A stretch of DNA of 62,027 bases from an uncultured Eubacteriales bacterium (GCA_900547725.1 URHR01000003.1:1-62027); one strand, 5' to 3'; counted from the first letter of the stretch, positions 3,444 through 55,966 are shown. Made by a program: numbers and translations. Notes: generated by a model from the letters alone, not told the origin.

Positions 3444-4841
3444 ATGGTTTACCGTGACGGAAGGGCGGAACAGGTGAAAATCGCTTACATCGGCGGCGGC
3501 TCGCGCGGCTGGGGCTGGGGGCTGATGAGCGATCTCGCGTCTTGTGGGGATATGTCGGGAGATGTTTATCTTTACGATATCGATTTTTCCGCAGCGCAAC
3601 ACAATGAGGTGATCGGCAACCTTTATCGGAACGCCGAGGGCGCGCGCTCTGTGTGGAATTATCATGCGGTGCGGAGCGCAGGGGAGGCACTGACGGGAGC
3701 GGATTTTGTTGTCATCTCGATTCTGCCGGGTAATTTTGACGATATGGAATCGGATGTTCACGCGCCGGAAAAGTACGGGATTTACCAGTCGGTCGGAGAT
3801 ACCACGGGACCCGGCGGAATCGTCCGGGCAATGCGGACGCTTCCGATGTATGAGGAGATTGCCGCGAATATCCGCCGGTACTGCCCGGAAGCCTGGGTTA
3901 TCAGCTACACGAACCCGATGTCGCTTTGCGTCAAAACGCTTTACCGGGTGTTTCCGGAAATCCGCGCGTTCGGATGTTGTCATGAAGTATTCGGCACGCA
4001 GAAGGCGCTGGCGGTGGCTCTGCTGAAATGCCGCGGGGCGGAAGCCGAGCGGCATGAGATCAAGGTTAATCCCGTCGGTGTCAACCATTTTACATGGCTG
4101 ACGCACGCCCGATACCGCGACCTGGATCTGTTTCCCGTCTGGCGGGAATTCGCGGAGCGCTATGCCGCAACCGGATATACCGAAAACCTGGATAAGAACT
4201 GGATGAACAATTCCTTTTCCTGCTCCAACCGGGTCAAATTTGATCTGTTTCTGCGGTACGGTGTCATTGCCGCCGCAGGAGACCGGCATCTGGCGGAGTT
4301 TTGCGAGGGCGGGTGGTATCTGCGGAATCCGGAGACCGTCCGGGAATGGGGATTCGGTCTGACAACGGTGAAATGGCGCAAGGAGGATCTTGCAAAGCGG
4401 CTGGCGAAAAGCGAGGGCTACCGCAACGGAAGCATTTCGGTTGCAATCAAGAACACCGGCGAGGAGGGGGTGGAGCAGATGCGCGCCATTCTCGGACTGC
4501 GGGAACTGGTGACGAATGTCAACCTTCCGAACGTGGGACAGATCCCGAACCTGCCGCTGGGGGCGGTTGTGGAGACCAACGCGGTGTTCCGCTCCGGCAG
4601 TGTCACTCCGGTGTTTGCAGGGAATGTGCCCAAAGCGATTTACCCCTTGGTGGCGCGCGTGTCCGGGCAACAGGAGGCGCTGTCGGATGCCATTGCACGG
4701 CGGAACGGAAAGGATGTTTTCAACGTTTTTCTCAACGATCCGCTGACGACCTGCTCCTATGACGATGCCAGACTGCTTTTCCGCGAAATGGTCGCCAATA
4801 CAGCATCCTATCTGTCATCCTACGATCTGACGGGAATCTGA
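3444..4841 (+). CDS. Glycoside hydrolase family 4 (NAD/Mn-dependent); alpha-galacturonidase (LplD-like) is plausible from context
   Basis: 465 aa. The N-terminal Rossmann start KIAYIGGGSRGWG is typical of GH4, and GGAGGG lies 7 nt upstream of the ATG. It is followed by an LplA-like SBP and uronate genes. Confidence 0.8.
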   Translation: MVYRDGRAEQVKIAYIGGGSRGWGWGLMSDLASCGDMSGDVYLYDIDFSAAQHNEVIGNLYRNAEGARSVWNYHAVRSAGEALTGADFVVISILPGNFDDMESDVHAPEKYGIYQSVGDTTGPGGIVRAMRTLPMYEEIAANIRRYCPEAWVISYTNPMSLCVKTLYRVFPEIRAFGCCHEVFGTQKALAVALLKCRGAEAERHEIKVNPVGVNHFTWLTHARYRDLDLFPVWREFAERYAATGYTENLDKNWMNNSFSCSNRVKFDLFLRYGVIAAAGDRHLAEFCEGGWYLRNPETVREWGFGLTTVKWRKEDLAKRLAKSEGYRNGSISVAIKNTGEEGVEQMRAILGLRELVTNVNLPNVGQIPNLPLGAVVETNAVFRSGSVTPVFAGNVPKAIYPLVARVSGQQEALSDAIARRNGKDVFNVFLNDPLTTCSYDDARLLFREMVANTASYLSSYDLTGI

Positions 4842-4961
4842 AGAACCCGCAGAACGGATTGGGGGAGGTGAGAAAAGCCCTTGGCTGAATTTCAGTGTCC
4901 AGACTGCCTTGCCTGAAAAAATCAGAACCGGTCTCCGGAGAACGGAGAGAAAGGAAACAAA

Positions 4962-6428
4962 ATGAAAAAAGTAATGAGATGCCTGATAGCCCTGCTCCTG
5001 TGTGCATGCCTGTTGCCGTCCGCTGTTGCCTGCAAGAACAACAAACCTTCGATAGAATCGGGGAACTCCTCCGATGTTGAAACAAAGCCGGGAAACCTGC
5101 CGGCGGAGACGGATGAGGACGGGTATGTACTGGATGATCTGCCGGACAATCCCGCATTTGACAAGACCGTTCGAATGCTTTACTGGGAGGATGTGGAGAA
5201 TGTTGAATTTGATGTGAGCGATCCTTACGGCGACCGCATCAGCAACTCCATTTATATGCGCAATCTTGCCGTAGAGGAACGACTGGGAATCAAACTGTCC
5301 TTCCATGGGACGGCCGGCAATTACGGAAACCTGGACAATTTCCTTGCAACTGCACAGGCGGGCTCGATTTCCGGGGATTATGATCTGTTTGCGGGCTACA
5401 GCATGAGCGGCGCATCCCTGGCGATCAACGGGCTCTGCCTGGATATGAAAACGCAGAAATATCTGAATTTCGAAAAGCCGTGGTGGCCGGAGTCCCTGAC
5501 CTCGGAGACGACAATCATCGACAAGCTGTTCTTCGCCTCCGGCGACATCTCCACCAATCTGCTCCACATGATGTATGTGGTGTTCTATAACCAGGAAATG
5601 ATCGATGCCGTCAGTCTGGAGAATCCGGTGGAGCTGGTGGATGAGGGCACCTGGACCTATGAAAAAATGTTCGATATGGCAAAGGGAATGTACTTGGACA
5701 CCAATTCGAATGATATTACAGATCAGGATGATCAGTACGGTTTCAGCGCCGGAAAAATGCACTATGAGGCCTTATTCACGGGTGCCGGAATCAAGACCAT
5801 TGAGAAGAACAATCTGGGCTGGATGATTGTTTCCCCAACTTTCAACTCCGCCAAGACCACCAAACTGCTGGATGACATCTGCACGTTCGTCCACGGTTCG
5901 AATGACGGCTTTTACGGTACCACCTTTGAAAAAGGACACACGCTGTTTGCCATTGACCGCTCCTACTATGCAATGATCCACAAGGAAGAAATGTCCTTTA
6001 CCTACGGCATTGTGCCGATTCCGAAGTATGACACGATTCAGGAGGGCTATGCCACCTGTCTGGGCAATCCCTTTACGGTTTACTCGATTGCCAAGTCCAG
6101 TGTCATTCCTGATATTGCAGCGGCAACGCTGGAGTGCCTCGCCTCGGAAGCGTACCGGAAGGTGACGCCGGAGCTGTTTGAGGCAACGATGAAATACCAG
6201 TACAGTGACGTTCCCGCTTCCGCGCGGATGTACGATCTGATCCGTAATTCGGTTATCATTGATCTCGGAAGAATTTTTGATAAGGAACTGGATGGCTACC
6301 CGCACACGCTGTTCAGTAATCCCATTGCCAAAAACGCGCCCGAAAGTTTTAGCAGCAGTTACAGAACGGGTGAGGAGACCATGTTGGAACGGTTGAAAAC
6401 CAACATTAACCCGGCATTCTCAAAATAA
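4962..6428 (+). CDS. Extracellular solute-binding lipoprotein (CUT1/LplA-like)
   Basis: 488 aa. The signal peptide has a lipobox (LLPSAVAC). Its size and sequence style match large sugar-binding SBPs, and it is paralogous to 40430..41884. No permease or ATPase gene lies nearby. Confidence 0.7.
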   Translation: MKKVMRCLIALLLCACLLPSAVACKNNKPSIESGNSSDVETKPGNLPAETDEDGYVLDDLPDNPAFDKTVRMLYWEDVENVEFDVSDPYGDRISNSIYMRNLAVEERLGIKLSFHGTAGNYGNLDNFLATAQAGSISGDYDLFAGYSMSGASLAINGLCLDMKTQKYLNFEKPWWPESLTSETTIIDKLFFASGDISTNLLHMMYVVFYNQEMIDAVSLENPVELVDEGTWTYEKMFDMAKGMYLDTNSNDITDQDDQYGFSAGKMHYEALFTGAGIKTIEKNNLGWMIVSPTFNSAKTTKLLDDICTFVHGSNDGFYGTTFEKGHTLFAIDRSYYAMIHKEEMSFTYGIVPIPKYDTIQEGYATCLGNPFTVYSIAKSSVIPDIAAATLECLASEAYRKVTPELFEATMKYQYSDVPASARMYDLIRNSVIIDLGRIFDKELDGYPHTLFSNPIAKNAPESFSSSYRTGEETMLERLKTNINPAFSK

Positions 6429-6440
6429 AAGGAAACCGAT

Positions 6441-8678
6441 ATGAAATTACTTCCGGAAGGATATATTGCAGTGCAGAGCACTGCGGACGGAGTTCTGCCG
6501 GACAGCTTCCGGTTCGGCGAAACCGTTTGGGCGGTACGCCCCGGCATTAACATTTTTGCCACTGCTCAGGAGGCGGCGGATCACGCATACGCCGCCCCGA
6601 CCGAACAGCTCCCCGGCATGCCGGAGCTGTCCGGGTGTCCGACCCTGCTTTTCTCTGCGGGAGAGCACCTTGTGGACGGTCTCCGAATCAGTCGATCGGT
6701 TGCGCTTTTCGGTCAGGGGGCCGGCATCTCGCCGAACCGTTCCTTTGACGGCGAGACCTGCCCGCAGGAGAATCCGGCGCGCGGGGAGGGAGAATCCGTA
6801 CTGACGGGAACATTCTACCGCGGCATGATCGATCTGACCGAGCCGGAGGTCCGGACATTGATCTTTGACGGCTTTACCTCGCGCGACGTCCGATTCCGCG
6901 ACTTGCGGACAACGGGCGGCGAGGCGCGCCTGATTTTCCGAAACCTGATTCACCGTGGACCGTGCGGGCATACGCTGTACTACTTCTCCAAGCCGCGTAC
7001 GGATGGCGGAATCGTCAGAAACGTCATGTTCTCGGATATCCGGCTGACCGATTTCGACGATTTGGACTACGGTAACTGTTTTGTTCAGCTGACCGCTGCG
7101 CGGGCGCTGTTCGAGCGGGTCGTGATGGATCATACCGGGTTGTTCTTCGGTCTGACCGATCTTGTCGGCTGTTTTTCCAATGCGGTGACCAATGTGCCGG
7201 TGGCGGAATATACGTTGCGGGGCTGCTGGTTTGGCAATCTCGGCGGGGGCATCCGTACTGCCTGCCGCGAACTGCTGACACGGGGAGCACCGGAAGTCGG
7301 CATCTGCCTGACCGTCGAAAATACCGTATTTTATCGCGTCGGGGGCGGTGAAGAGCCGGTTCTGTCCCTGATGCTTGCCAATTCCGCCTGCCGGGTCTCT
7401 TTGCGCGGCGTGACCGTTACAGATCCGACCGGCGGGAGAGCCGCGGCAATCCGGGTCTGCGGAAAAGGCAGGGAACTGGTGATTAGAGAGGACTGCCGGT
7501 TTGACGGATTCCGGGAGCGCGTTGCCTTTGATCGGCTGTATGACGGGGCGGTTCCCGTCTGTGTGGAGACCCGTTCCGAAGCATTTCGGACGCAAACGGA
7601 GGATTCGCATATCGTGCGGGCACTGTGCGATGCCGATTTTGCCGGGTTGGAGCGGCACTACGCCGGGAAACGGGCGTATTATGGCGATCTTCATGTGCAC
7701 ACGCAGTGCGGCGGGACCAGCGACGGAACCTACCCGATGGAAAAATGGGTCGCGGAGATGGATCGGCTAAAGCTGGATTTTGCCGCGGTTGTGGATCATC
7801 GGCAGATGCGCGGGTACTTTCTCCCGGAGTGGAGCGAGGAGCGTTTTATGATCGGCACTGAGCCTGCCACACGGCTGCAGGATCTTCGCGCAGGGCGGAG
7901 CGGACAGAACGAGTTGCATTATCTGATGCTGTTCCCGCACAAATATTCCCTTGCCATGGTGCTTGCCAATTTCCCGGAGTTCCGGTTTCACGGGGATGAG
8001 CTGACGGGGCGCTTCCGGTATCCGGATTTTACACGCGAACGGATGGCGGAGCTGAGCGCATACGTTCAGTCCATTGGCGGTATTCTCGTTCACGCTCATC
8101 CGAAGGTGATGATGGCTTCGGATGACCCGTTGGACTACGATCTCGGCGAAGGAACGTTCATCGAAACGATTTACGGAAATCCCGAATCGACTGCATCTCT
8201 GAAGGATTATCAGCTTTGGGAAAAGCTGCTGGCGCTCGGAAAGCGCATCCGTATCTCCGGCGGATCGGACACACACGGCGGAGTGAGCAACCGGGCAGTC
8301 TCCACGTTTTATACGGCGGAGCGTTCTGGAAATACGTTTTTCGAGCAGATGCGTTCGGGAGATTTTACCGTTGGCGCCTTCGGCTTGCAGATGATGATCG
8401 GAGACACCCCGATGGGGACATCTGTCGCTTACCGGGACGATCTGATTCTGGCACTGCGTGCAGGGGATCCCTTCCGGCCAACCTTTTCTGCGGGAGATGC
8501 GTATGAATTGCGGATTCTGACTGACCGCGGTGTGGCGTATGCTTCGACGTGGGACGGAGAAGCGCCGCAGCGGGTGGCTTTGCAGGTTGAGCGGCGTGCC
8601 TTTTACCGGGCGGAGATTTTTGATCTGACCAAGGGCTGTCGCGTTGCCATCGGCAATCCCATTTGGCTGGATTCGTGA
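6441..8678 (+). CDS. Two-domain protein: N-terminal repetitive beta-helix-like region plus C-terminal PHP/CehA-type metallohydrolase domain
   Basis: 745 aa. PHP-like metal motifs are present: YYGDLHVHTQCGG, AAVVDHRQ, LVHAHP, GGSDTHG. There is no signal peptide. It is embedded in the uronate operon. Confidence 0.6.
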   Translation: MKLLPEGYIAVQSTADGVLPDSFRFGETVWAVRPGINIFATAQEAADHAYAAPTEQLPGMPELSGCPTLLFSAGEHLVDGLRISRSVALFGQGAGISPNRSFDGETCPQENPARGEGESVLTGTFYRGMIDLTEPEVRTLIFDGFTSRDVRFRDLRTTGGEARLIFRNLIHRGPCGHTLYYFSKPRTDGGIVRNVMFSDIRLTDFDDLDYGNCFVQLTAARALFERVVMDHTGLFFGLTDLVGCFSNAVTNVPVAEYTLRGCWFGNLGGGIRTACRELLTRGAPEVGICLTVENTVFYRVGGGEEPVLSLMLANSACRVSLRGVTVTDPTGGRAAAIRVCGKGRELVIREDCRFDGFRERVAFDRLYDGAVPVCVETRSEAFRTQTEDSHIVRALCDADFAGLERHYAGKRAYYGDLHVHTQCGGTSDGTYPMEKWVAEMDRLKLDFAAVVDHRQMRGYFLPEWSEERFMIGTEPATRLQDLRAGRSGQNELHYLMLFPHKYSLAMVLANFPEFRFHGDELTGRFRYPDFTRERMAELSAYVQSIGGILVHAHPKVMMASDDPLDYDLGEGTFIETIYGNPESTASLKDYQLWEKLLALGKRIRISGGSDTHGGVSNRAVSTFYTAERSGNTFFEQMRSGDFTVGAFGLQMMIGDTPMGTSVAYRDDLILALRAGDPFRPTFSAGDAYELRILTDRGVAYASTWDGEAPQRVALQVERRAFYRAEIFDLTKGCRVAIGNPIWLDS

Positions 8679-15114: not shown

Positions 15115-15834
15115 TTACAGCGCGTTCAGAATGGTTCGGGCAATGATGCGGTGTCCCTCGTTGCCGGGGTGGAGACGGTCGGTGTTGACGTTGCTGAAAT
15201 AGGCTTGCGCGCTTCCGTCAAAGAGCGGGAACAGACCGCTGTTGCGGTACAGGTCGATCAACTCAACCGACCAGATGTCCGCCGCCTGCCGCTCCGCGCG
15301 GATGTATTCATCCAGGAAGTGCCCCGATTTGTTGGAATAGAGCTCGTTCGGCTGAATGTTCGTTCCGCCGAAGTATGCATAAGCCCGGTGAAGCGGGGTC
15401 ATCAGGATGACCCGCTTGTTGTAGTACTGCCGCTTTATCCGCTCAAACACGCGGTTGAGCCTGCCGCAGAAGGTGGCGTTATCCATGATGAATTCCCGCT
15501 TGGCGCGGGTCGAGAATTCCGTGAACACACCGTCCGCATTGCTGTTGCAGGGAAACGGCTCGGAATGCACGGTCCAGAAATCTCCGATCGGAACGCCCGC
15601 ATTGAAATCGTTGGTTCCGATGAACACAAACAGCGTGGTGAAGCGGATTCCAACCTCCGCGTCCATCCGATCCATCTGATCAAACAGCCCCGTGGTCTGC
15701 GCGCCGTTCTTTCCGTAGCGGTAGACCGGAATTCCGGTCGCCTCATGAATAAAATCGATGTATGTTTTGGTCGCTCCGACCCCCTCGGTGATGCTGTCAC
15801 CCAAAAAGCAGAATGTTTCTCCGATTCCTGTCAT
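15115..15834 (-). CDS. SGNH/GDSL-family hydrolase
   Basis: 239 aa. It has block I FLGDSITEG, a GTNDF block, and a C-terminal DRLHPGNEGH (D-x-x-H). Confidence 0.75.
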   Translation of the reverse strand: MTGIGETFCFLGDSITEGVGATKTYIDFIHEATGIPVYRYGKNGAQTTGLFDQMDRMDAEVGIRFTTLFVFIGTNDFNAGVPIGDFWTVHSEPFPCNSNADGVFTEFSTRAKREFIMDNATFCGRLNRVFERIKRQYYNKRVILMTPLHRAYAYFGGTNIQPNELYSNKSGHFLDEYIRAERQAADIWSVELIDLYRNSGLFPLFDGSAQAYFSNVNTDRLHPGNEGHRIIARTILNAL

Positions 15835-16027
15835 GCCAAATTACTCCTTCTTTTTTTGTTCGTACAAAGTATAGCATAATGTTGCGTTCAAATCAAGTGG
15901 TTTTCGGTCAAAAGATCTGAAAAAACGGACTTTTTGGTTCTCTGTCTGCTTTCTCTTTGCCGGCTGCCGGCTGACAACAAAACAATAATTTACAAAAATA
16001 AATTCGAACTGGTCTAAATCATTATAT

Positions 16028-16053
16028 TATTTGCCGAAAGAATATGATACAAT
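16028..16053 (+). promoter_or_regulatory. TG-extended -10 promoter candidate with shared motif TATTTGCCGAAAG (locus A)
   Basis: TATTTGCCGAAAG (16028..16040) is identical to 41887..41899 upstream of locus B. TG-A-TACAAT lies at 16045..16053. No good -35 is present. Confidence 0.4.
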
Positions 16054-16163
16054 ACAGGTAAAGCAAGCATGTATGACCGTAAAAAGTGCCCCGGCAACCG
16101 CAACCGGGTGTCTCTTGCGGACGGTCTGACGTCTTGCGAAAAAACATTCAAGGGTGGAGGGAC

Positions 16164-17849
16164 ATGATGAAAAGATTGCTATCTGTATGCTTGACCTTTT
16201 GTATGCTCTTTGGCACGGTCTTCGGACTCTCGCTTCTGACCGAAGCCACCGGATCTGCGGTTTGGGATGGCAGTGCGGACACCTCATGGTACAACACGAC
16301 CGATACCGTTTTTACCCTGACCGACGGTGCCGACCTCGCAGGTTTTGCGGCGATTGTAAACGGCACGGCAGAAGGAATTGAGCAGACTAATTTCGAAGGA
16401 AAAACCGTGCGTCTCGGCGCGGATATCGTTCTGAACGATGGCGATGCAAAGACATGGGGAACATCGGCTGCGGGACTGCAGGCGTTTCCGATGATCGGAA
16501 ACCTGAAGGGATCGACTTATGCAGAAACCGATGAGCCGAAATATTTTGCGGGCGAATTTGACGGGCAGGGATATACGATCTCCGGGCTGTTCATCAATCA
16601 AAAAGTGAATTCCCGCGGCGAGGGGTCGGCACTGTTTGCAGCTGTATACGGTTCGGCAAGCCTGCATGATTTTTCCCTTGTCAATTCGTACATCAGGAAT
16701 CCCAACAACTATGCGGCAGCGGCAATTACGGCATATGTAATGCCGAAATCCTCCGCTGAGGCGGACGCGTTCCATATCTATAATATCTATACCGATGCAA
16801 TCGTAACCGCATCGAACAATAAGAACTTTGGCATTGGCGGCATTGTCGGACGGATCGGATATGCCTGGAGCGATGCAAAGATCAACGACTACAACACAAT
16901 CTCCTCCTGTGTGTTTGCGGGGACGATCATTCACACCGGCACGGGGCTTGCCAATGCAGGCGGAATCATCGGGGATGTCTATGACCATGGCGTCAATGTT
17001 TCGGACTGCCTGAATCTTGGAATCGTACAGAGCGTCAACAACGGAAACTACATTGGCGGCATTGTCGGAAGAGGAAATCCGAATAACAGTAAAATTACGG
17101 TAACAAGTTGCGTAAATGCGGTTACGCCGGATACCGCAAACGCAACGGCAGCCGAAATTCTTTCCATGGAGAACAAATCGCCCCGCCCGGATTTTGCAGT
17201 GAAGGATTGCTTCTATGTGGGAAACAAATATGCGGTCAACCGCGCAACGACGGATCTTGGCGCGAAATTTCCGAAGGTGATTACCGCAACCAAAGTCACC
17301 GCAGAGCAACTGACCGGGCTTGGTGTTTCCGGGGAGATCACCTCCGGACTGAGCGGATGGATTCTGCGGGACGGACAGGTGATGATTCCTGCGGGCGCGG
17401 CGGCGGTTGTTCCGTCCGAACCGTCCCATTTCGCACCGGTCACGGAGGGCGGCGTGGCGTTCCGCGGCGTACAGAATACCGAGGCAAAGGATGGAAGCTT
17501 CAACCTCCGCTTCATCGGAACGGTGGATTCCCTGCATTATTCCGTTCTCGGGTATGATTTATCCTGCACTTGGGCGGAGGGCTCGAAGCCGGAGGCGGAG
17601 TTTACGACCGATACTGTTTACAAGACCATTACCGCAACCGAGAACGGAATGACAAAGCAGTACACGGCAGAAGGTTTTTCGGCAGAATATATCTGGGCGG
17701 TGACAGTGGCAGGCATTCCGGCAACCGGTGACATGACCTTTACCGTCAAGCCTTTTTCCTGTGATCTGGAAGGAAACAAGACCACGGTCGGCGTGTACAC
17801 ACTGGTTTATCGGGACGGACAGTTTGTCAGCCTGACCCGACAGAAATAA
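16164..17849 (+). CDS. Secreted GLUG-repeat protein, paralog 1 (C-terminal beta-rich domain)
   Basis: ORF 16086..17849. I moved the start to ATG 16164 (GGTGGAGGG upstream), giving the signal peptide MMKRLLSVCLTFCMLFGTVFG. It has WDGSADTSWYNTTD..LAGFAAIVNG, FAGEFDGQGYTISGL, and repeated GGI[VI]G....C units. Confidence 0.7.
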   Translation: MMKRLLSVCLTFCMLFGTVFGLSLLTEATGSAVWDGSADTSWYNTTDTVFTLTDGADLAGFAAIVNGTAEGIEQTNFEGKTVRLGADIVLNDGDAKTWGTSAAGLQAFPMIGNLKGSTYAETDEPKYFAGEFDGQGYTISGLFINQKVNSRGEGSALFAAVYGSASLHDFSLVNSYIRNPNNYAAAAITAYVMPKSSAEADAFHIYNIYTDAIVTASNNKNFGIGGIVGRIGYAWSDAKINDYNTISSCVFAGTIIHTGTGLANAGGIIGDVYDHGVNVSDCLNLGIVQSVNNGNYIGGIVGRGNPNNSKITVTSCVNAVTPDTANATAAEILSMENKSPRPDFAVKDCFYVGNKYAVNRATTDLGAKFPKVITATKVTAEQLTGLGVSGEITSGLSGWILRDGQVMIPAGAAAVVPSEPSHFAPVTEGGVAFRGVQNTEAKDGSFNLRFIGTVDSLHYSVLGYDLSCTWAEGSKPEAEFTTDTVYKTITATENGMTKQYTAEGFSAEYIWAVTVAGIPATGDMTFTVKPFSCDLEGNKTTVGVYTLVYRDGQFVSLTRQK

Positions 17850-17862
17850 GGAGGGGAGACTT

Positions 17863-18003
17863 ATGAAAAAGCAATATTCGGCACCTGAGATGATCTGTCA
17901 CAACATGGAATGGACGGATATTCTGACCACTTCCCTCAATTCCCAAACATCCGGGGAGGGGAAATCCTACAACTTTAACGAATGGGGGATAACATCGTTA
18001 TGA
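17863..18003 (+). CDS. 46-aa micro-ORF (small acidic hypothetical protein), family member 1
   Basis: It is not in the ORF track (<60 aa). GGAGG lies 8 nt upstream of ATG 17863. The product is MKKQYSAPEMICHNMEWTDILTTSLNSQTSGEGKSYNFNEWGITSL. Its TGA (18001..18003) overlaps ATG 18000 of the next gene. A same-length, same-motif partner lies at 43453..43593. Confidence 0.55.
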   Translation: MKKQYSAPEMICHNMEWTDILTTSLNSQTSGEGKSYNFNEWGITSL

Positions 18004-19499
18004 AAAGCAAGAGCCTGATTTGTTTCATCCTGTTTTGCGCCCTGCTGGTTACGGCAGTCCTACCGGTTTCCGGAGAGGATTCCTCGCCGGTGGCTACGGC
18101 ATGGGACGGAAGCGCGGATACTTCGTGGTACAACACAACCGATAACACCTTTACTTTAACAGACGCTGCCGACCTTGCCGGCTTTGCCGCCATTGTAAAC
18201 GGCACGGCGGAAGGCATTGCACAGTCCAATTTTCTCGGAAAGACTGTCCGGCTCGGCGCGGATATCCTGCTCAATACGGGTGATGCAGCGTCTTGGACGC
18301 CGGAAACCGAGGGCTTGCAGGCGTTTCCGATTATCGGAAACATCAGCGAAAAAGACGGTGCCGCGGATGCCAGCCTGCAGTTCAGCGGGGAATTTGACGG
18401 ACAGGGACACACCATTTCCGGTCTGTACGTAAACGGTCGGTCCGACTGGTGGGAAGGTTCGGGACTTTTTGCGGCGATATACGGTCCCGCAAAGCTCCAC
18501 GATTTTGCTCTGGTCAACTCGGCGGTCTTTCAGCCCGGTCGTTACAATGCCGCTGCCGTCACAGCATATGCGTTTGTCAAGTCCGGTGAAGAAAAGGATG
18601 CCTTCAGCATTTATAACATCTATACGGATGCAATGATTACTGCGTCTGGCGAAAAAACCGGAATCGGCGGGATTGTCGGTAAAATCTCCGACCCGACCTA
18701 CAAGAGTGTGACGAACGCTTACGGATCGATCCGTTCCTGCGTGTTTGCGGGAAAGATCACCCAAACCGGAAACTGTGCGGCTTATTCGGGAGGCATTCTC
18801 GGAAACGTGAACGATGTCGGCGTGCAGATTTCCGACTGCCTGAACCTCGGAACCATTGTCAGCCTGAACAACCGGGAGTACCTGGGCGGAATTGTCGGAA
18901 AGGGTGACACCAACCACTGTACCATCCGCATCAACCGTTGTGTGAGCGTGGTGGATCCCACCTCTGCCAGCCGAAAAGTCGGCGGAATTATTTCCTTCGG
19001 CAATAAGCCGATTGACGATGACGAATTTTTGGACTGCTTTACCGCCGGCGAGCGTTATGCCGTTTGCAAGGAGGGGAACGAGGCAACCGGAGACAGCATC
19101 CGGACGGGGAAAACCACCCTGCGGGAGCTGGTCGGTGCGGATGTCCCCGAAGCCGTAAAGACAGCACTGACCGGCTGGGTCACGCGTGAGGGCGGAATCA
19201 TCATTCCTGCAGGCGTTGCCGCGCTGACGCCGCTGTTCGGCGATGTGCCAACCCCTCCGTCGGGGGAAAACACGACAGAGACGCCGACCGAGAAGCCAAC
19301 GGATGCTCCCACGAAGCCGAACAATCCGCCTACAGGGGAAAAGCCCGCGCAGGATTCTTCCACACAGGAACGGTCGGCCGGCACTGCGGCGGAAAAGCCG
19401 GCTGAAAAAGGCTGCCAAAGCGCCGTTGGGATTGCACCGCTCCTGGCACTGATACTCTCCGGCATTTACGTCGCGGAGAATAAGAAAAGAAACCGTTGA
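18000..19499 (+). CDS. Secreted GLUG-repeat protein, paralog 2 (Pro/Thr linker plus C-terminal hydrophobic anchor)
   Basis: ORF 17982..19499. I prefer the start at ATG 18000 (MKSKSLICFILFCALLVTAVLPVSGED signal peptide). The N-terminal domain resembles paralog 1. FSGEFDGQGHTISGL is present. The C-terminus is ...GIAPLLALILSGIYVAENKKRNR. Confidence 0.7.
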   Translation: MKSKSLICFILFCALLVTAVLPVSGEDSSPVATAWDGSADTSWYNTTDNTFTLTDAADLAGFAAIVNGTAEGIAQSNFLGKTVRLGADILLNTGDAASWTPETEGLQAFPIIGNISEKDGAADASLQFSGEFDGQGHTISGLYVNGRSDWWEGSGLFAAIYGPAKLHDFALVNSAVFQPGRYNAAAVTAYAFVKSGEEKDAFSIYNIYTDAMITASGEKTGIGGIVGKISDPTYKSVTNAYGSIRSCVFAGKITQTGNCAAYSGGILGNVNDVGVQISDCLNLGTIVSLNNREYLGGIVGKGDTNHCTIRINRCVSVVDPTSASRKVGGIISFGNKPIDDDEFLDCFTAGERYAVCKEGNEATGDSIRTGKTTLRELVGADVPEAVKTALTGWVTREGGIIIPAGVAALTPLFGDVPTPPSGENTTETPTEKPTDAPTKPNNPPTGEKPAQDSSTQERSAGTAAEKPAEKGCQSAVGIAPLLALILSGIYVAENKKRNR

Positions 19500-19501
19500 A
19501 G

Positions 19502-21625
19502 ATGAAAAAACTGATTACAATTGCTCTATGTATTATGCTTGCGGCAGGACTGCTTTTGTCCTGCCGCAACGGAAACGATCCGGCTTCCCCGACAGATGAC
19601 GGGACGGAGAGCAGTACCGTTGCGCTCCGCCCGGAGGAGTGGACTCTAATCCGTCCCCAAAAGGCAAGCCCGGCGTTGACGGCGGAGATTAACCGCCTCA
19701 AGCGTGCTTGGGAGTCGGCAACGGGTGAAACCATTGTGCTGAAAACCGATGCCGATCCGGAGGGGGCGCATGAGATTCTGATCGGGGAGACCTCCCGTGC
19801 GGCGTCCAAAAGCGCGCGGGATGCATTGCAGGGGGATCGGTATGCGCTGACGCATGACGGAAATCATATCGTGATTGTCGGTTCCTGTGATGCGCTGACG
19901 GCGGAGGGCGTTCGCTATTTTGCCGAGACGTATGTCGTCAGTGCCCCCGCGCTGACCCTGCCGGACGGATTGCAGTATGTCAGCGAGGAGTTGGACGTGG
20001 TTTCGCTGACCAACGGAACCCGTTTCCGGTATCCGGTCATCTTTGCGGACGGACTGGATAATACGCCGGACAAGGGGAATCAGAATCGTGTGGATTACAC
20101 CGTTCAGCTGGCGCGGGATCTGCGAAACCGGTTGGAGGCGCTGACAGGTGCCGTTCCCAACCTGAAGTCCGACTGGGTCAAAATCGGAACGGATACCGCA
20201 GACACGTATGAAATTCTGATCGGAGACACGGCGCGTCCCGAATCGGCACAGGCAAAATCCCGCTTGAGGGGAGCACAGGATTACGGCGTTTTCTTCATCG
20301 GAAACAAGATTGTCATCTCTGCATGGACGGAGCAGACACTGGGCAAAGCGGTGAACCTGTTTCTGGAGAACCTGGAACTTTGGCGCGTTTCTGCGGAGGG
20401 GCAGGTCGCGGATATCCGCCTGCGGAAAACGGATCTGACGGATGCATACCGCGGCTGGCAAACGGACATTCCGCTCCCGGAGCGCGGCAAGCTGACCGGA
20501 TGTGTGACCTGCGCAAACGATCAGCTGGAGTATGTATGGACCGATGTACGATCCGATGATTTTTCCGCCTATCGGAAGAAGCTGGAGGCGGATGGGTATA
20601 CCCTGCGGGACGAAAACCGGATTGGCGAGAATCGGTTTGCAACGTATGTCAAGGGAACCGCATTTCTGCACGCATCCTTTGTCCCGAACGGCTCGGCAGG
20701 AATGCCTGCCATCCGGGTCATTACCGGGGTGACGAACAAGGCGCCGTATCTGCCGGAACCGTCATCGGTCAGGCAGGAGTATGTGAAAATCACGGAATCC
20801 AAGCTGACGCAGATGGCGCTGGATTATCAGGCGGGCGACTACGGAATGTGCTACGTTGTTACGCTGGAGGACGGCAGCTTCCTGATTGTGGACGGCGGTG
20901 CAAATATCGGAAAGACCGACCACACCCGGCTTTGGAATCTGCTGAAGCAGCTGAACGAACGCCCGGACGGGAAAATCGTAATCGCCGCATGGCTTTTGAC
21001 GCACAATCACGCCGACCATTATCAGGTCTTTGAGGATTTCTGCGCCGAATACGGCAGTCAGGTGACAATTGAACAGTTCGTCTGCAATGTGCCGGACAGC
21101 ATTGTGGCGTATAACTCCACCGACCCCGGAACGCATTATCAGAACGGTTTTTCAAAATCGTCCCTTGCGGCAGGTGGCATTCGGAACATCAAGCCTTACA
21201 CGGGGATGAAATGGTCGGTGCGCAACGTGGAGCTGGAGGTTCTGTTCACACAGGCGGATCTGTATCCCAAAAAGCTGACGCTGTACAATGATTCCTCCAT
21301 GGCATTCCGAATGACTGTTGCGGGACAGACCATGCTTTGGCTGGGGGATATTCAGACGAACGCTTCCGATGTGATCTGCGCGATGTACGGAGAGAATCTG
21401 AAAAGCGACATGGTTCAGGTTTCTCACCACGGCGGAAACGGCGCCACCGAGCAGCTTTACACGCTGATCCGCCCGACAGTTGCATTTTGGCCGTGCGACC
21501 GTGCGAATTATCAGGGGTACATCCGCCATTTTCCCGCAAGCGACCTGCTGGCAAACCAGTTGGGTGTGAAGAAAAATATTGTTGCCGACCCTGACCATAC
21601 CCTGACTTTTCCGTTCCTTTCCTGA
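19502..21625 (+). CDS. Lipoprotein with two EILIGxT modules and a C-terminal metallo-beta-lactamase-fold domain
   Basis: ORF 19496..21625 with an ATG at 19502. The lipobox is LLLSC. The modules are HEILIGETSRAASKSA and YEILIGDTARPESAQA. The HxHxDH motif is LLTHNHADHYQVF. Confidence 0.7.
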   Translation: MKKLITIALCIMLAAGLLLSCRNGNDPASPTDDGTESSTVALRPEEWTLIRPQKASPALTAEINRLKRAWESATGETIVLKTDADPEGAHEILIGETSRAASKSARDALQGDRYALTHDGNHIVIVGSCDALTAEGVRYFAETYVVSAPALTLPDGLQYVSEELDVVSLTNGTRFRYPVIFADGLDNTPDKGNQNRVDYTVQLARDLRNRLEALTGAVPNLKSDWVKIGTDTADTYEILIGDTARPESAQAKSRLRGAQDYGVFFIGNKIVISAWTEQTLGKAVNLFLENLELWRVSAEGQVADIRLRKTDLTDAYRGWQTDIPLPERGKLTGCVTCANDQLEYVWTDVRSDDFSAYRKKLEADGYTLRDENRIGENRFATYVKGTAFLHASFVPNGSAGMPAIRVITGVTNKAPYLPEPSSVRQEYVKITESKLTQMALDYQAGDYGMCYVVTLEDGSFLIVDGGANIGKTDHTRLWNLLKQLNERPDGKIVIAAWLLTHNHADHYQVFEDFCAEYGSQVTIEQFVCNVPDSIVAYNSTDPGTHYQNGFSKSSLAAGGIRNIKPYTGMKWSVRNVELEVLFTQADLYPKKLTLYNDSSMAFRMTVAGQTMLWLGDIQTNASDVICAMYGENLKSDMVQVSHHGGNGATEQLYTLIRPTVAFWPCDRANYQGYIRHFPASDLLANQLGVKKNIVADPDHTLTFPFLS

Positions 21626-39018: not shown

Positions 39019-40365
39019 ATGATCAAAGGAAGAATCGGAAGATGTCTTGCGTGGCTTCTGGCGGGGGTTGTCCTGCTGGCTTCCTGCAAACCGGGGCAGT
39101 CCGATTCCCCACAGGATACTTCGAAAGAAACGTCCGGGCAGACTCCGTCCGGGGCGCTTGAACTGATCCGGGACGGGAAGGCGGGCTGTGGCATCGTGCG
39201 GCAGACCGGTATCGGGAAGGATGCGATGACGCTGTGCTCGGAGCTGTTCGACGCCGTACAGGAGAAGACCGGTGCGGAGATCGGCTTTGTCAGCGACCGG
39301 AAGAGCTTGCAGGACGGTTGGGTCGAGATCCTGATCGGGGACACGAACCGCCCGGAGTCCGCACAGGCAAAGCAGGCGCTGGGAGACGATGCATATTCGG
39401 TTTCGGTCGTCAACCGGAAGCTGGTGCTGGTCGGCGCGGATGAACGGATGCTGGAGCATTGTTTGCGGTCGTTTCTGGATATGATTGCGCAAAATGCGGA
39501 AGCGCTCGGAATGGGACGCGGGTACTGGACCATGCCGCAGGATTTCAGCCGGCGTTTCGACAGCCCGGATGAAAGCTATAACGGACACATCGGAAGGGGA
39601 TATCCGCTCAGCTCCGTGTTTACCAGAATTCCGAAGCTGTGTGCAACCGGCGGAAGCTCCTCGGTCGGGGATTACCGCTTTCCGTGGGTGCAGGGCGGCT
39701 GTACGGACGGCACTTATTACTACGCTTTCATGATTACCGACAACTCCGTAGCGCCGACCAAATGTACGATCTTAAAGTATGAGCTTGCCTCGCAGAATCT
39801 GGTAAAGGTCAGCCGGGAGCTGGAACTGGGGCACGCCAACGATGCCGCATGGAATCCGGATCGGGGCGTGATTGCGGTGTGCGGCTCCGGAATGACCCAC
39901 TATCTGATCGATCCGGAGACTCTGACGGTGAAGGAAACCGTCCGGACTGACAATCCGGGCTACACCGTGGTCTATGACTCCGTGCAAAAGGAGTATCTGA
40001 TGGCAACCTCCACCGCAGTCTATGTCTATGACAGCGACTTCCGTCCGAAACGGCAGTTTGCCATTGAAGGATTCCTTTCGGCGTTTGACGCGGGCGGCAA
40101 GGCGGCAGGGCAGGGAATGACCTGCGACGACACTTATCTTTACTATCTGGAATATTGGCAGAATTCCGCAAACGGAAAGGACATCCGTTGCAATATTGCG
40201 GTCTACCGTCTGCGCACGGGCGCGTTTGTCCAAAGAATTCCGCTGGAGATGAAGCGCGAGGCGGAGAACATCTTCATTTGGAACAACAGCTTTTATGTGG
40301 TGTGCAACAACATCTCCTGGTCCGGCTCGGAATGCTTCCGGATCGATATTGTTCCGGAAGACTGA
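39019..40365 (+). CDS. Lipoprotein with one EILIGDT module and a C-terminal beta-rich domain
   Basis: ORF 38986..40365. I moved the start to ATG 39019 (AAAGGAGGG 8 nt upstream). The lipobox is LLASC. The segment VEILIGDTNRPESAQAKQAL matches the modules in 19502..21625. Confidence 0.6.
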   Translation: MIKGRIGRCLAWLLAGVVLLASCKPGQSDSPQDTSKETSGQTPSGALELIRDGKAGCGIVRQTGIGKDAMTLCSELFDAVQEKTGAEIGFVSDRKSLQDGWVEILIGDTNRPESAQAKQALGDDAYSVSVVNRKLVLVGADERMLEHCLRSFLDMIAQNAEALGMGRGYWTMPQDFSRRFDSPDESYNGHIGRGYPLSSVFTRIPKLCATGGSSSVGDYRFPWVQGGCTDGTYYYAFMITDNSVAPTKCTILKYELASQNLVKVSRELELGHANDAAWNPDRGVIAVCGSGMTHYLIDPETLTVKETVRTDNPGYTVVYDSVQKEYLMATSTAVYVYDSDFRPKRQFAIEGFLSAFDAGGKAAGQGMTCDDTYLYYLEYWQNSANGKDIRCNIAVYRLRTGAFVQRIPLEMKREAENIFIWNNSFYVVCNNISWSGSECFRIDIVPED

Positions 40366-40429
40366 AGCTCCGGGAGCAGGACTGCCCGAACGGGCGAACA
40401 ACCGATTGAAAAGAAAGGATCATTTCACG

Positions 40430-40468
40430 ATGAAAGCGATGAAAGCGATGAAAGCAATGAAAGTGATG
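40430..40468 (+). repeat. 9-bp tandem repeat encoding (MKA)3-MKV-M at a gene start
   Basis: ATGAAAGCG ATGAAAGCG ATGAAAGCA ATGAAAGTG ATG gives five in-frame ATGs. Confidence 0.9.
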
Positions 40469-41884
40469 CAAGCATGGCTTCTGATTCTTGTTTTTGTACT
40501 GCTGGCGGTTTTCCCCTCCTGCAAATCGAAGCCTGAGGGTGGGACGCCGACCGACTCCGGAACAGGGGAGAAAACGGAAATCATTGCGGACATTCCGCAG
40601 CGAGCCTACAATACCCATTTTACCATTCTCAATCCGAACAGAAAGCTGCTGGACACCTATTACTGGTGCGAGGACGAAAAAGCCGGAACATCGATTGACG
40701 CGGCAAACTACGGACGGGAGGCGGCAATTGAGGAGCACCTCGGCATTGAGATCTTCCATGAGCTTTACGAGCTGAAGGAGGGGACGCTGTATCGCCTGAT
40801 CGAACAGCAGAACCTGACCGGAACGGAGGCGTATCAGCTTTTCCTGACGCACTCCTTTCAGGATCTGGTCAGCATTGTGACAACCGACAGCGTGCAGGAT
40901 CTCTCACAGGTTTCCGGGGTCTCCCTGAATGAGGATTACTGGAACACGCAGATCATGGAGCAGGTGCGGTTTCAGGGGCATATGTTCCTCGGGAGCAGCT
41001 CGTTCATTCTCCATGAGCCGGTTGTCATGCTGTTCAACAAAAACATGGCGGGCGCACTGCTGAGCGACGGAGGTGCGGCACAGCTGTACGACCACGTGCG
41101 GGAGAAAACCTGGACCATCGAGCAGATGCAGACCTATGCAAAAATGGTTGATACCGGCATGAACAGCAGTCTTGCCAATAAAAAAGACGGGACTTACGGC
41201 TTTGCAACCCTGTTGGACTGGGAGCTTGCCTCCTTTGCGCAGGCAAACCATTATTTCCACGGCACGGTCACCGAAGAGGGCAGCGTAAAGCTGCAGGCAT
41301 TCAACGATGATATCTTCAAAATCTTTCAGAAGGTCGTCGGGCTGGTGGATCAGGAGTACACGTACAGCTGGAGATATTCCGACATCGGAACCGGCGCGGA
41401 GCTGAGCATCAGTACCGGGCGGGTGCTGTTTGCCACCAGCGGAACGCCGGACATGATTCCGCTGATGCTGGAGAGCGAAATTCCGATCGGCGTTCTGCCG
41501 TATCCGACAATCGAAGCGGGAATGAGCTATCAGAGTCTGGATTGGGCAGGATATTTTGCCGTTCCGCGGGCGATTGCCAACACGCAGATGAGCGGCGAGG
41601 TCGCGGAACTGCTCTCCTGGTACGGTGAGAATACGATCAAGAACGAATTCTACAACGTTCTGCTGGGACTCCGGGCAAGCAACGAACCGGAGGACCGCGA
41701 AATGCTGGCGCTGATCTTCGACAACCTGGTGGCTGACCCGGCTCTGCCCTATATGAATGAGGGCGCATCACCGGTTGCCTACATCTTCTATGTCATTTCC
41801 CGGATGCTCTCCAAAGGGGAGCGCGGAATGGCGGGCTGGTACGCACAGTATTACGACCCCGCACAGGCGGCACTGAAGTTTTGA
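40430..41884 (+). CDS. Extracellular solute-binding lipoprotein (paralog of 4962..6428)
   Basis: ORF 40295..41884. The start is at the first ATG of the repeat (GAAAGGA 10 nt upstream). The signal peptide ends in VFPSC. It resembles the first SBP (for example AIEEHLGIEI vs AVEERLGIKL). Confidence 0.68.
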   Translation: MKAMKAMKAMKVMQAWLLILVFVLLAVFPSCKSKPEGGTPTDSGTGEKTEIIADIPQRAYNTHFTILNPNRKLLDTYYWCEDEKAGTSIDAANYGREAAIEEHLGIEIFHELYELKEGTLYRLIEQQNLTGTEAYQLFLTHSFQDLVSIVTTDSVQDLSQVSGVSLNEDYWNTQIMEQVRFQGHMFLGSSSFILHEPVVMLFNKNMAGALLSDGGAAQLYDHVREKTWTIEQMQTYAKMVDTGMNSSLANKKDGTYGFATLLDWELASFAQANHYFHGTVTEEGSVKLQAFNDDIFKIFQKVVGLVDQEYTYSWRYSDIGTGAELSISTGRVLFATSGTPDMIPLMLESEIPIGVLPYPTIEAGMSYQSLDWAGYFAVPRAIANTQMSGEVAELLSWYGENTIKNEFYNVLLGLRASNEPEDREMLALIFDNLVADPALPYMNEGASPVAYIFYVISRMLSKGERGMAGWYAQYYDPAQAALKF

Positions 41885-41910
41885 TATATTTGCCGAAAGG
41901 CTGATATAAA
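41881..41910 (+). promoter_or_regulatory. Promoter candidate with shared motif TATTTGCCGAAAG (locus B)
   Basis: TTGATA (41881..41886), an 18-nt spacer containing TATTTGCCGAAAG (41887..41899), and TG-A-TATAAA (41902..41910). Confidence 0.5.
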
Positions 41911-41915
41911 ATTAA

Positions 41916-41968
41916 AGGCATCACCGCGCAATTCCGACGGTGCAATCGCGAATTGCGCGGTAATGCCT
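41916..41968. repeat. Minimal copy of the MITE ends forming a 19-bp hairpin in the 5' leader of 41987
   Basis: AGGCATCACCGCGCAATTC, a 15-nt loop, and GAATTGCGCGGTAATGCCT (18/19 complementary). It is followed by AAAAAAAGGAGAAAACAC-ATG. Confidence 0.75.
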
Positions 41969-41986
41969 AAAAAAAGGAGAAAACAC

Positions 41987-43354: not shown

Positions 43355-43392
43355 AGCGATTACCGCTTCCGGTTCTGATGCCCCACAAGGCA

Positions 43393-43430
43393 GATACCGC
43401 CGCCCGATTCTGTATCCGGGCGGCGGTATC
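43393..43430 (+). other. GC-rich 14-bp perfect stem-loop between GLUG paralog 3 and the micro-ORF
   Basis: GATACCGCCGCCCG, a 10-nt loop, and CGGGCGGCGGTATC. No T-run follows. Confidence 0.8.
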
Positions 43431-43452
43431 GGAATAAAGAAAGGAGATTTGC

Positions 43453-43593
43453 ATGATGAAAAGCAGTTTTTACACCTCGCCGGAGATGCTTCTGATAGGG
43501 ACGGATGCCGACGATGTCATCCGCACCTCCGGGATACAGGCAGTCGAAAATGACGGGATTTCTGCAGTGCCGGGCATCCCGTGGAAATCCTGA
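43453..43593 (+). CDS. 46-aa micro-ORF (small acidic hypothetical protein), family member 2
   Basis: It is not in the ORF track. AGGAG lies 6 nt upstream. The product is MMKSSFYTSPEMLLIGTDADDVIRTSGIQAVENDGISAVPGIPWKS. Its stop is 23 nt before ATG 43617. It has the same length, position and motif as 17863..18003. Confidence 0.55.
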   Translation: MMKSSFYTSPEMLLIGTDADDVIRTSGIQAVENDGISAVPGIPWKS

Positions 43594-43616
43594 TCGGAAG
43601 GAGGGGCGGAAAAGAC

Positions 43617-45302: not shown

Positions 45303-45305
45303 GGC

Positions 45306-55871: not shown

Positions 55872-55916
55872 AAGACGGCGGCAGAATTTCTGCCGCCAAA
55901 GACTGCAGACCAAAAA

Positions 55917-55966
55917 GCACTCACACCGAAGCAATAGCCGAGGTGTGAGCGCTTTTTCGATTTTTA
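55917..55966 (+). terminator. Intrinsic terminator of the giant gene
   Basis: GC(A)CTCACACC (55917..55927) pairs with GGTGTGAG(C)GC (55942..55952), followed by TTTTTCGATTTTTA. A 9-bp hairpin at 55877..55897 precedes it. Confidence 0.75.

Follow-up and report, generated by a model that had tools for sequence, protein, structure and literature searches.

The 62,027-nucleotide stretch of DNA analysed here (the window) comes from an uncultured Eubacteriales bacterium (GCA_900547725.1, URHR01000003.1:1-62027) and contains two gene clusters, locus A (15115-21625) and locus B (39019-46277), whose similar composition raises the question of what they jointly specify and, in particular, what purpose is served by a 46-codon gene that each of them carries. 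The original prediction, drawn from this DNA alone, listed for each locus two secreted GLUG-type paralogs, a 46-codon open reading frame (ORF) between them, an SGNH esterase and a lipoprotein bearing an EILIG motif. All of these parts are present. No named system of this composition was found, as the prediction had supposed, and neither Pfam nor NCBIfam nor any source record names the small proteins. The small ORF (micro-gene) is a real gene, and the unit that recurs in other genomes consists of a large secreted-protein gene with a micro-gene downstream on the same strand. The reading of these facts that we put forward, and hold to be evenly poised between right and wrong, is that the two loci represent a paralogous Clostridial surface module whose micro-gene would encode a peptide with a leader of the kind bound by the RiPP recognition element (RRE; RiPP, a peptide made on the ribosome and then modified post-translationally), processed in trans with release of an acidic tail.

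Few products of gut and rumen Clostridia are understood as poorly as their large secreted repeat proteins of the GLUG, Flg_new and related kinds. That a tiny and nearly always overlooked gene, belonging to an unnamed family of thousands of clusters, systematically trails large secreted proteins is the principal interest of these loci. (Comparison loci are designated below by L numbers, and homologous proteins by P numbers.)

The micro-gene and its family

Micro-gene A (17863-18003, + strand) and micro-gene B (43453-43593, + strand) each specify 46 residues, the length originally given for both: MKKQYSAPEMICHNMEWTDILTTS followed by an acidic tail in A, and MMKSSFYTSPEMLLIGTDADDVIRTS followed by the tail GIQAVENDGISAVPGIPWKS in B. 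The two align as Y-x-x-P-E-M-x8-D-[IV]-[LI]-x-T-S. Both have strong Shine-Dalgarno sites (AAGGAGGGGAGACTT-ATG and AAAGGAGATTTGC-ATG) and the frame-1 excess of GC at third codon positions that is seen in neighbouring genes. Micro-gene A begins 13 nt past the stop codon of the first GLUG-type gene of its locus (A1), and its own stop overlaps the start of the second (A2) in the sequence ATGA. All 22 close variants (78-98% identity) are intact, at 46-47 aa. A seemingly unusual nucleotide conservation of the micro-ORF (dS 0.075, compared with 0.41-0.54 in flanking GLUG genes) was considered and discarded, since such a value is within what the region's mosaic of identities shows.

A first search with the micro-ORF returned close relatives only, and was reseeded with homologs derived from genomic context in order to go further, yielding 61 proteins of the family. 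A HMMER scan of 1.84 billion cluster representatives (clustered at 50% identity; cut-off E<=1e-3) then gave at least 3,916 clusters. The top 150 matches are 31-119 aa long, except for one 377-aa repeat protein that is apparently spurious. The family consensus is MKKxYxxPEMEIIxFxxEDVITTSG, followed by a variable, acidic, Gly-rich tail; its members come from Lachnospiraceae, rumen and other Clostridia, and their amino acids are conserved over variable DNA. Motif strings such as EDVITTS, DVITTSG and PEMEII do not occur in the indexed literature.

The tails (n=191), which start after a near-invariant Ser, have a median length of 20 aa, contain 16% Gly and 20% Asp+Glu, and are net negative in 95% of cases; an aromatic residue lies within the last 8 positions in 73%. 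Asp/Glu is mildly enriched at tail position 8 (0.38, compared with ~0.2-0.3 elsewhere). None of the 191 contains a membrane segment, and the window peptides have no signal peptide. The AlphaFold (AF2) model of an isolated micro-peptide is extended, with a leader devoid of secondary structure (pTM 0.16), which fits a motif that folds on binding.

One subfamily (P0026, P0029-P0036, P0040-P0043, P0049, P0209, P0241, P0262 and P0271) has a conserved C-terminal DAGLDNEVSA[DN]KWVF. This motif follows a Pro/Thr/Ala/Ser-rich linker of very variable length, for totals of 57-119 aa, and the arrangement looks like two binding sites on a flexible tether.

Linkage to genes of large secreted proteins

A scan of genome contigs gave eight GLUG-anchored loci, in which all ORFs of at least 25 aa were searched with a hidden Markov model (HMM) built solely from close relatives of the two window micro-ORFs. 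Beyond orthologs, the model picked out only five small ORFs (E 1e-6 to 0.05), all of them on the same strand as, and directly 3' of, GLUG-type genes in metagenome-assembled genomes (MAGs) of Faecalimonas, rumen and other Clostridia. Among 11 independent GLUG-type loci, seven have a micro-gene on the same strand (L003, with two copies, L004, L005, L007, L019, L020 and L024) and four do not (L008, L021, L022 and L023). The distance from the upstream stop to the micro-gene start is 3-21 nt in 13 of 16 instances (13, 17, 15, 16, 15, 14, 18, 18, 21, 15, 14, 18 and 3 nt) and 65, 98 and 197 nt in the others; the strand is always that of the upstream secreted-protein gene. Frames are mixed, so the micro-gene is a separate, probably coupled, unit of translation. 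Fusion to the upstream gene by read-through or frameshifting was rejected on the same ground, and because every copy has its own Shine-Dalgarno sequence and ATG.

The micro-gene is not confined to GLUG pairs. It also follows a 2,421-aa Flg_new protein (L009-L011), a Flg_new-type protein of at least 627 aa (L025), and GH43_C-containing proteins of 1,856 and 2,096 aa in a housekeeping neighbourhood (L012-L014). In L017 its neighbours on the two sides encode unclassified proteins of 1,009 and 1,061 aa, and in L016 it comes after a 380-aa metallo-beta-lactamase (MBL) protein and ahead of a full homolog of the locus A lipoprotein, with two EILIG modules and MBL domain (E 6e-86). What is constant in this survey is the relation "large secreted protein, then micro-gene". 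The GLUG pair split by a micro-ORF is indeed the arrangement in the window, but it is better read as a unit of GLUG gene and micro-gene, with a second GLUG gene placed after it.

Other families accompany this unit in non-orthologous loci. Lipoproteins of the locus B type that resemble substrate-binding proteins (SBP-like) recur in L003, L007, L016, L019 and L024 (L004 has a true SBP_bac_1 protein with two permeases), and MBL proteins recur in L003, L004 and L016. GLUG is fused to MBL in L005 (341-3304) and to an endonuclease/exonuclease/phosphatase (EEP) domain in L003 (14683-18426), with a micro-gene after each fusion; in L019 an EEP gene lies between the GLUG gene and the micro-gene, and L024 has three Metallophos genes. 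The fusions suggest that the beta-helix targets phosphoesterase activity. Co-occurrence beyond this genome, which the prediction required of its gene families, thus holds for GLUG, micro-gene, SBP-like and phosphoesterase families; it does not hold for the SGNH genes, which do not recur beyond orthologs in the non-orthologous loci compared, and the EILIG module is seen beyond orthologs only in L016. The proposed surface apparatus is therefore partly real: beta-helix, micro-gene, unclassified lipoprotein and phosphoesterase are its stable, recurrent core, from which the SGNH esterase and the specificity for GLUG pairs drop out.

Likeness of the leader to RiPP precursors

The published RRE-binding motif is [Y/W]xxPx[L/V/I/F/A] (PMC13381572), and lasso-peptide leaders carry YxxPxL (PMC10368454). 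The recently described precursors of linear polyphosphorylated peptides (LPP) of Bacillota, 35-200 aa in length, have a conserved N-terminus, YxxPxVLxHQxIxFETxxS, and variable C-termini; their leader is removed by an SpI-type peptidase presented by the RRE, the conserved Ser just past the cut is polyphosphorylated, and their clusters are embedded in polysaccharide loci (PMC13381572). The micro-gene products resemble LPP and lasso precursors in being small, strongly conserved at the N-terminus and hypervariable at the C-terminus, and in having YxxPx[hydrophobic] and then a second conserved stretch that closes with a conserved Ser. The leaders encoded in the window, with YSAPEM and YTSPEM, fit the RRE-binding motif. 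On the other hand, the micro-gene consensus YxxPEMEIIxFxxEDVITTSG differs from that of LPP; no RRE, SpI-type peptidase, HprK-like kinase, NTP-transferase, cyclase or exporter gene lies nearby; and the micro-gene is attached 3' to the gene of a large secreted protein, in many cases among housekeeping genes.

The closest tie to RiPP biosynthesis is provided by L015 (1561-4267), a compact and apparently undescribed RiPP cluster. Its two precursors share one leader (MKKQYSAPEMEVISLKSEDMILTSG...) and have Cys-rich cores; phmmer aligns micro-gene A with an L015 precursor over residues 1-24 (E 1.4e-5). The cluster also encodes a radical SAM/SPASM enzyme with matches to RiPP-maturase models (TIGR04463, E 7e-37, and PapB, E 1e-31, both below curated cut-offs), a stand-alone PqqD protein for which the lasso RRE model scores E 8e-8, and a 154-aa protein with no model match, which is a putative S24/S26-type peptidase by its GKSMLP motif. 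NCBIfam lasso_cyano matches residues 1-13 weakly in 7 of 33 micro-gene family members. As judged from these alignments, the micro-gene leader is homologous to the leaders of genuine radical-SAM/PqqD RiPP precursors. Since the leader is recognisably of RiPP type, the question of what the micro-gene does is experimentally tractable.

The GLUG-type proteins

Locus A encodes A1 (from 16164 or 16167 to 17849, + strand), with a Sec signal peptide, a solenoid of ~390 aa, a C-terminal beta-sandwich and no anchor, and A2 (18000-19499, + strand), with a Sec signal peptide, a Pro/Thr-rich stalk and a C-terminal hydrophobic membrane anchor. (The 499-aa homolog P0063 agrees with the 499-aa product from the ATG at 18000.) Locus B encodes B1 (from 41963 or 41987 to 43354, + strand), a lipoprotein with lipobox LASC and a Pro/Thr-rich linker, and B2 (43617-45302, + strand), with a Sec signal peptide and an additional N-terminal beta-sandwich. 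The predicted core F-x-G-x-[FL]-D-G-x-G-[HY]-[TS]-I-S-G-L and the three GG[IL][IV]G...C units after it are invariant or nearly so in a four-way alignment, and the columns expected of a solenoid, GGI[VI]G and C.[FN].G, are invariant. The motifs are real by alignment, and not spurious as the prediction had allowed they might be.

None of the four proteins matches Pfam GLUG (PF07581), even at E<=10. A profile search collected 138 relatives; PF07581 is present in many that are distant (among homologs at E 1e-25 to 1e-9 a precomputed match is frequent), a few have the M26 N-terminal domain, and some distant ones score with PF05342. The AF2 model of A1, made from 67 sequences, has a pLDDT of 79 and a pTM of 0.75, with a core mostly above pLDDT 85. 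Foldseek returned for it one significant match in the PDB, 3n6z (E 1e-8, TM 0.71 on target), which is a Bacteroides GLUG domain (BACOVA_03286) deposited as "putative IgA1 protease"; the second, weak match is pneumococcal IgA1 protease. On this modelling the four proteins are divergent right-handed beta-helices of the GLUG superfamily, with the fold of the 3n6z domain, which is non-catalytic. They share repeated GGhhG...C.N.G rungs and fold with PF07581, 3n6z and 6xjb (the N-terminal domain of streptococcal M26 IgA1 protease), but do not reach the Pfam GLUG model, have a short length of 455-561 aa and are found as tandem paralogs. They do not match the M26 Pfam model, and HExxH and LPXTG are absent from all four. 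As they have neither HExxH nor another recognisable catalytic motif, they are most plausibly binding scaffolds.

A1 and A2 are 52% identical (E 3e-133) and B1 and B2 75%; A and B proteins are ~30% identical (E 1e-18 to 1e-22). Within the B pair, 611 bp are identical (42636-43246 = 44584-45194) in genes that are otherwise ~70-96% identical, which points to recent gene conversion or to copies collapsed in assembly. This tract, together with the closer relation of paralogs within each locus, implies that gene conversion or independent tandem duplication has shaped the GLUG pairs.

Lipoproteins and phosphoesterases

The A lipoprotein (19502-21625, + strand; lipobox LLSC) has two EILIG modules and a putative ComEC-type MBL domain; the B lipoprotein (39019-40365, + strand; lipobox LLASC) has a single EILIG module, and its beta-rich C-terminal domain is unclassified. 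The motif EILIG[DE]T-x-R-x-x-S-x-x-A occurs twice and once, respectively, as originally counted, and marks a real domain of ~120 aa. Its sub-threshold matches belong to one fold class (NAGLU_N, E 0.0044; Glyco_hydro_20b, E 0.25; N-terminal domain of GH84 BT_4395, ~0.5), so that the module may have the GH20b/NAGLU_N/GH84 N-terminal fold.

In the MBL domain, the HNHADH motif (residue 503) is intact, an SHHG motif is present, and the best matches are to the MBL domain of ComEC (NCBIfam ComEC_Rec2, E 3.9e-7, partial; PDB 9vc6, E 7.7e-4). Pfam Lactamase_B scores 16.7 bits, below its cut-off of 22.7. The domain is apparently an active phosphoesterase. Both motifs and best matches recall ComEC/Rec2-type proteins, but the A protein, a lipoprotein, has two putatively GH20b-like domains and lacks a competence channel.

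An additional part of locus B is the SBP-like lipoprotein of ~480 aa (40430-41884, + strand), which has a lipobox; its paralog on the A side lies at 4962-6428. The family (lipoproteins of ~480-520 aa) has no Pfam or NCBIfam match. Its profile finds MalE weakly in the PDB (E 0.12) and does not match the true SBP_bac_1 protein of L004; no permease gene adjoins either copy in the window. When compared by sequence with Pfam, NCBIfam and the PDB, the GLUG-type, EILIG and SBP-like proteins had no significant match.

In setting lipoproteins and secreted proteins among GH29, GH30, GH4, GH20, FucI, uronate and regulator genes, the window resembles Gram-positive polysaccharide-utilisation loci, which combine binding or degrading proteins at the surface with an SBP-dependent ABC importer and glycosidases of the cytoplasm, and L004 and L007 have SBP_bac_1 and BPD_transp_1 permease genes beside the GLUG gene. 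In contrast to such loci, the window module has no recognisable extracellular glycoside hydrolase or carbohydrate-binding module, has no permease genes beside it and uses an SBP-like family that Pfam does not match; the recurrent enzymes are phosphoesterases instead of glycosidases. The pairing of GLUG protein, phosphoesterase and unclassified lipoprotein is a candidate nutrient-harvesting apparatus of a kind that current carbohydrate-enzyme annotation misses.

The SGNH esterases

Each locus has an SGNH hydrolase, as stated at the outset. SGNH A (15115-15834, - strand; 239 aa, N-terminus MTGIGETFCFLGDSITEG) is transcribed divergently from the GLUG operon of its locus, with GDSI at residue 12; SGNH B (45306-46277, + strand; 323 aa) has GDSI at residue 22. 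Both match Lipase_GDSL_2 (E 2.2e-18 and 1.6e-16; 67.8 and 61.8 bits, cut-off 32.9) and have the expected DxxH motif, in DRLH and DRVH blocks. The two differ in size and position and share 23% identity (E 8e-4). Both sequences open directly with the catalytic block, with no signal peptide; the enzymes are therefore likely to be cytoplasmic, and not parts of the surface. The original assignment of SGNH to a surface module does not survive this location, the barely detectable relation between A and B, and the absence of these genes from non-orthologous loci.

Relation between the two loci

In locus A the order is SGNH (- strand), promoter region, A1, micro-gene, A2, lipoprotein and EamA transporter; in locus B it is lipoprotein, SBP-like lipoprotein, promoter, B1, hairpin, micro-gene, B2, SGNH and FucI, with a strong terminator at 48246. 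The description of B as a paralogous twin of A stands for the parts list. It does not stand for descent by simple block duplication, because within-locus paralogs are closer than between-locus ones; gene order differs as well.

A shared motif beside a TG-extended -10 element at the head of both loci was also predicted, and is found there as an exact 13-mer, TATTTGCCGAAAG. In locus A (+ strand) it occupies 16028-16040, in the promoter spacer, and is followed by TGaTACAAT at 16045-16053. In locus B it occupies 41887-41899 within a promoter-like site (41881-41910, + strand), preceded by the -35 sequence TTGATA (41881-41886) and followed by TGaTATAAA (41902-41910). In both loci the promoter whose spacer holds it is that of the first GLUG gene, and the TG-extended -10 comes 2-4 nt after it. 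The window contains exactly two copies, even when two mismatches are allowed. In relatives, it is identical in L001, has one mismatch in L002 (~90% identity) and a 1-nt insertion in L006. By our own estimate, ~100 exact 13-mer pairs are expected by chance in 62 kb, and the chance that two pre-specified 100-nt regions share a 13-mer is ~1e-4 to 1e-3. The 13-mer is a candidate shared operator or promoter element because it holds the same promoter position in two operons, though their proteins are only ~30% identical.

Between B1 and micro-gene B lies a perfect 14-bp, GC-rich stem-loop without a T-run (43393-43430, + strand). The 106-nt intergenic stretch has a minimum free energy of -42.5 kcal/mol (z -3.8), and windows over the hairpin (43352 and 43412) have 93% and 98% identity to L006. 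The hairpin may serve processing or stability, or may act as a partial attenuator that parts B1 from the downstream genes. The ~110-nt 5' leader of A1 contains a GC-rich hairpin of its own, CCCGGCAACCGCAACCGGG at 16090-16108, with no Rfam match.

Function of the micro-gene and alternative explanations

In the scheme that we propose, loci A and B would be paralogous copies of a cell-surface module placed within sugar-catabolism operons, with a two-gene unit as core. The first gene would supply a large Sec-exported protein, here a GLUG-type binding scaffold, and the second would be the translationally coupled micro-gene. The second GLUG paralog comes next, membrane attachment probably being provided in A by the C-terminal anchor of A2 and in B by B1 as a lipoprotein. 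Lipoproteins would complete the exterior, one combining GH20b-like domains with a ComEC-type MBL phosphoesterase and another being SBP-like; imported products would be acted on in the cytoplasm by the SGNH esterases together with the GH29, GH30, GH4 and FucI proteins encoded nearby. In the micro-peptide, the 24 N-terminal residues would be the leader, with YxxPE[LM]...D[VI][IL]-x-[TA]-S serving RRE-type recognition. A recognition protein encoded elsewhere would bind the leader as an extended strand, the peptide would be cut near the invariant Ser, and the part with a function would be the acidic tail, produced at a constant ratio to the upstream surface protein and presumably acting at the surface.

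Several observations weigh against this scheme. Homologs of the L015 radical-SAM enzyme, PqqD protein and putative peptidase are found neither in the window nor in L001-L008 and L016-L021; the gene tables of the GLUG, MBL and giant-protein loci, L022-L024 included, list no RRE/PqqD, radical-SAM or SpI-type peptidase gene apart from the one noted below for L009-L011; and no kinase or exporter candidate adjoins the micro-genes in the gene tables of the window and loci. Most tails lack Cys, Cys-rich ones are few (5 of 191), and residue positions in the tails give no clear sign of any known modification. The proteins upstream of micro-genes were searched for a shared C-terminal partner domain, and none was found. 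The dN/dS ratio of the micro-gene relative to 90% relatives, 0.5-0.67 on only 46 codons, is not decisive. We know of no RiPP cluster in which the precursor is hard-wired to a giant secreted protein. Finally, a glycan-binding or -processing role of the module is a reasonable guess whose backing consists solely of the gene neighbourhood and weak domain matches. (A weakly related radical SAM/SPASM gene, E 6e-4 to 2e-3, does lie ~3.4 kb downstream of the micro-gene in L009-L011.)

The main rival explanation, which we think somewhat unlikely, is that the micro-protein is no precursor of a modified peptide, and is instead a stoichiometric partner (adaptor, escort or inhibitor) of the upstream secreted protein. 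Its N-terminal motif would dock on a common machine and its acidic, aromatic-ended tail on specific cargo; the resemblance to a leader would stem from common descent, or from a strand-forming motif having been reached by convergence. The 3-21 nt spacing on the same strand and the ATGA overlaps, which favour coupled translation and a fixed stoichiometry, speak for such a partner, as do the spread of the linkage over unrelated cargo (GLUG, Flg_new, GH43_C-containing, MBL, EEP) and the failure to find maturation genes near micro-genes. The subfamily in which DAGLDNEVSA[DN]KWVF stands behind a hypervariable Pro/Thr/Ala linker resembles a two-site tether, and several cargoes are phosphoesterases, whose phosphate-rich substrates acidic tails could mimic. 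However, the peptide lacks both a signal peptide and a membrane segment and its supposed cargo is Sec-exported unfolded, the cargoes have no domain in common, an escort would be badly timed if translated after a protein of 500-3,500 aa, and the leader is homologous to those of genuine RiPP precursors. Were the micro-protein nevertheless a direct partner, it would be a new accessory factor for the export or function of secreted proteins.

Processing in trans, as we prefer to suppose, would carry the logic of RiPP biosynthesis beyond compact clusters, to precursors that are dispersed and tied to surface proteins. A more specific form of this proposal seems to us unlikely: that the micro-genes constitute a new class of leader peptides kept in lock-step with large secreted surface proteins, with an RRE-type adaptor acting in trans, trimming at the Ser, and possibly phosphorylation or glycosylation of that Ser. 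If it were true, the acidic, aromatic-capped product would act jointly with the surface protein, for instance as its ligand, anchor, cofactor or production signal, and a RiPP-like pathway scattered over many loci would serve cell-surface architecture rather than antibiosis.

That there is no system at all, and that A and B are ordinary paralogous sugar-utilisation stretches sharing common gene families, we consider decidedly unlikely. The 13-mer would then be a chance match or a relic of duplication, and the micro-ORF a spacer that couples translation of its neighbours. The SGNH genes, unrelated in detail and cytoplasmic, the difference in gene order, and the active gene conversion evident in 611 identical bp of B1 and B2 are what one would expect of such stretches; some exact 13-mer pair is to be expected in 62 kb, and nucleotide conservation of the micro-ORF relative to L002 stays inside the mosaic range of the flanking genes. 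This explanation does not account for conservation of the micro-gene's amino acids over thousands of clusters with variable DNA, nor for the joint recurrence of GLUG, micro-gene, SBP-like and phosphoesterase families in non-orthologous loci, fusions included, nor for a 13-mer at the same promoter-spacer position in loci whose proteins are ~30% identical.

It is highly improbable that the micro-genes are orphan lasso-peptide precursors with cyclase and peptidase encoded elsewhere (a leader ending in T-x-S, a Gly-first core cyclising onto Asp/Glu 7-9, a C-terminal aromatic plug), for although lasso_cyano matches weakly, the leader has YxxPx[LM] with Thr two or three residues ahead of the junction, tails (median 20 aa) have Gly first in 54%, Asp/Glu at 7-9 in 68% and a late aromatic in 73%, and the micro-gene B tail would fit a Gly1-Asp8 ring with a Trp18 plug, no cyclase or B2 peptidase gene occurs in any locus examined, the spacing from Tyr to junction exceeds that of the lasso motif by 2-3 residues, Asp/Glu shows no sharp positional peak (position 2 is equally common) and is predicted at 7-9 in about 49% by acidic composition alone, and the micro-gene A tail begins with Leu.

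Gene neighbourhood and other features of the window

Close relatives of the window are human-gut MAGs labelled "Eubacteriales/Clostridia". Sugar-catabolism genes fill it (GH20, GH4, KduI, GH30, GH29 fucosidase and L-fucose isomerase, FucI), together with a uronate pathway (UxaC, KDG kinase, KDPG aldolase) and regulators of the AraC and RpiR types. An Rfam scan of the whole window found no riboswitch or known RNA, and promoter and terminator scans of it were uninformative. GC content is 53-60%, except in a block at 48-56 kb with 47-50%.

This block (48729-58075; GC 0.47-0.50, compared with ~0.56) may be horizontally acquired. It contains the gene of a 2,380-aa protein that has Flg_new repeats and matches Pfam GLUG at a borderline level (48729-55871; E 8e-4), behind which there is no micro-gene, and then that of a GDPD phosphodiesterase whose N-terminus has an EEP-like SDHCPV motif. 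Farther on, at ~59500-62027, GC skew and gene orientation switch near 60 kb, with dnaN (60776-61924) on the minus strand. Convergent orientations beside dnaN, a marker of the replication origin, are unexpected, and the flip may stem from rearrangement or from a join made when the MAG was assembled.

On the other side of locus A, at 3444-8678, a GH4 gene (3444-4841) is followed by the gene of the SBP-like paralog (4962-6428) and by a gene (6441-8678) whose 745-aa cytoplasmic product has a CehA/McbA-type metallohydrolase domain. The order GH4, then SBP-like, is common to this stretch (3444-6428) and L019, where the next gene is of GLUG type and not, as in the window, that of the metallohydrolase; 3444-8678 is possibly a third, partial copy of the theme of loci A and B.

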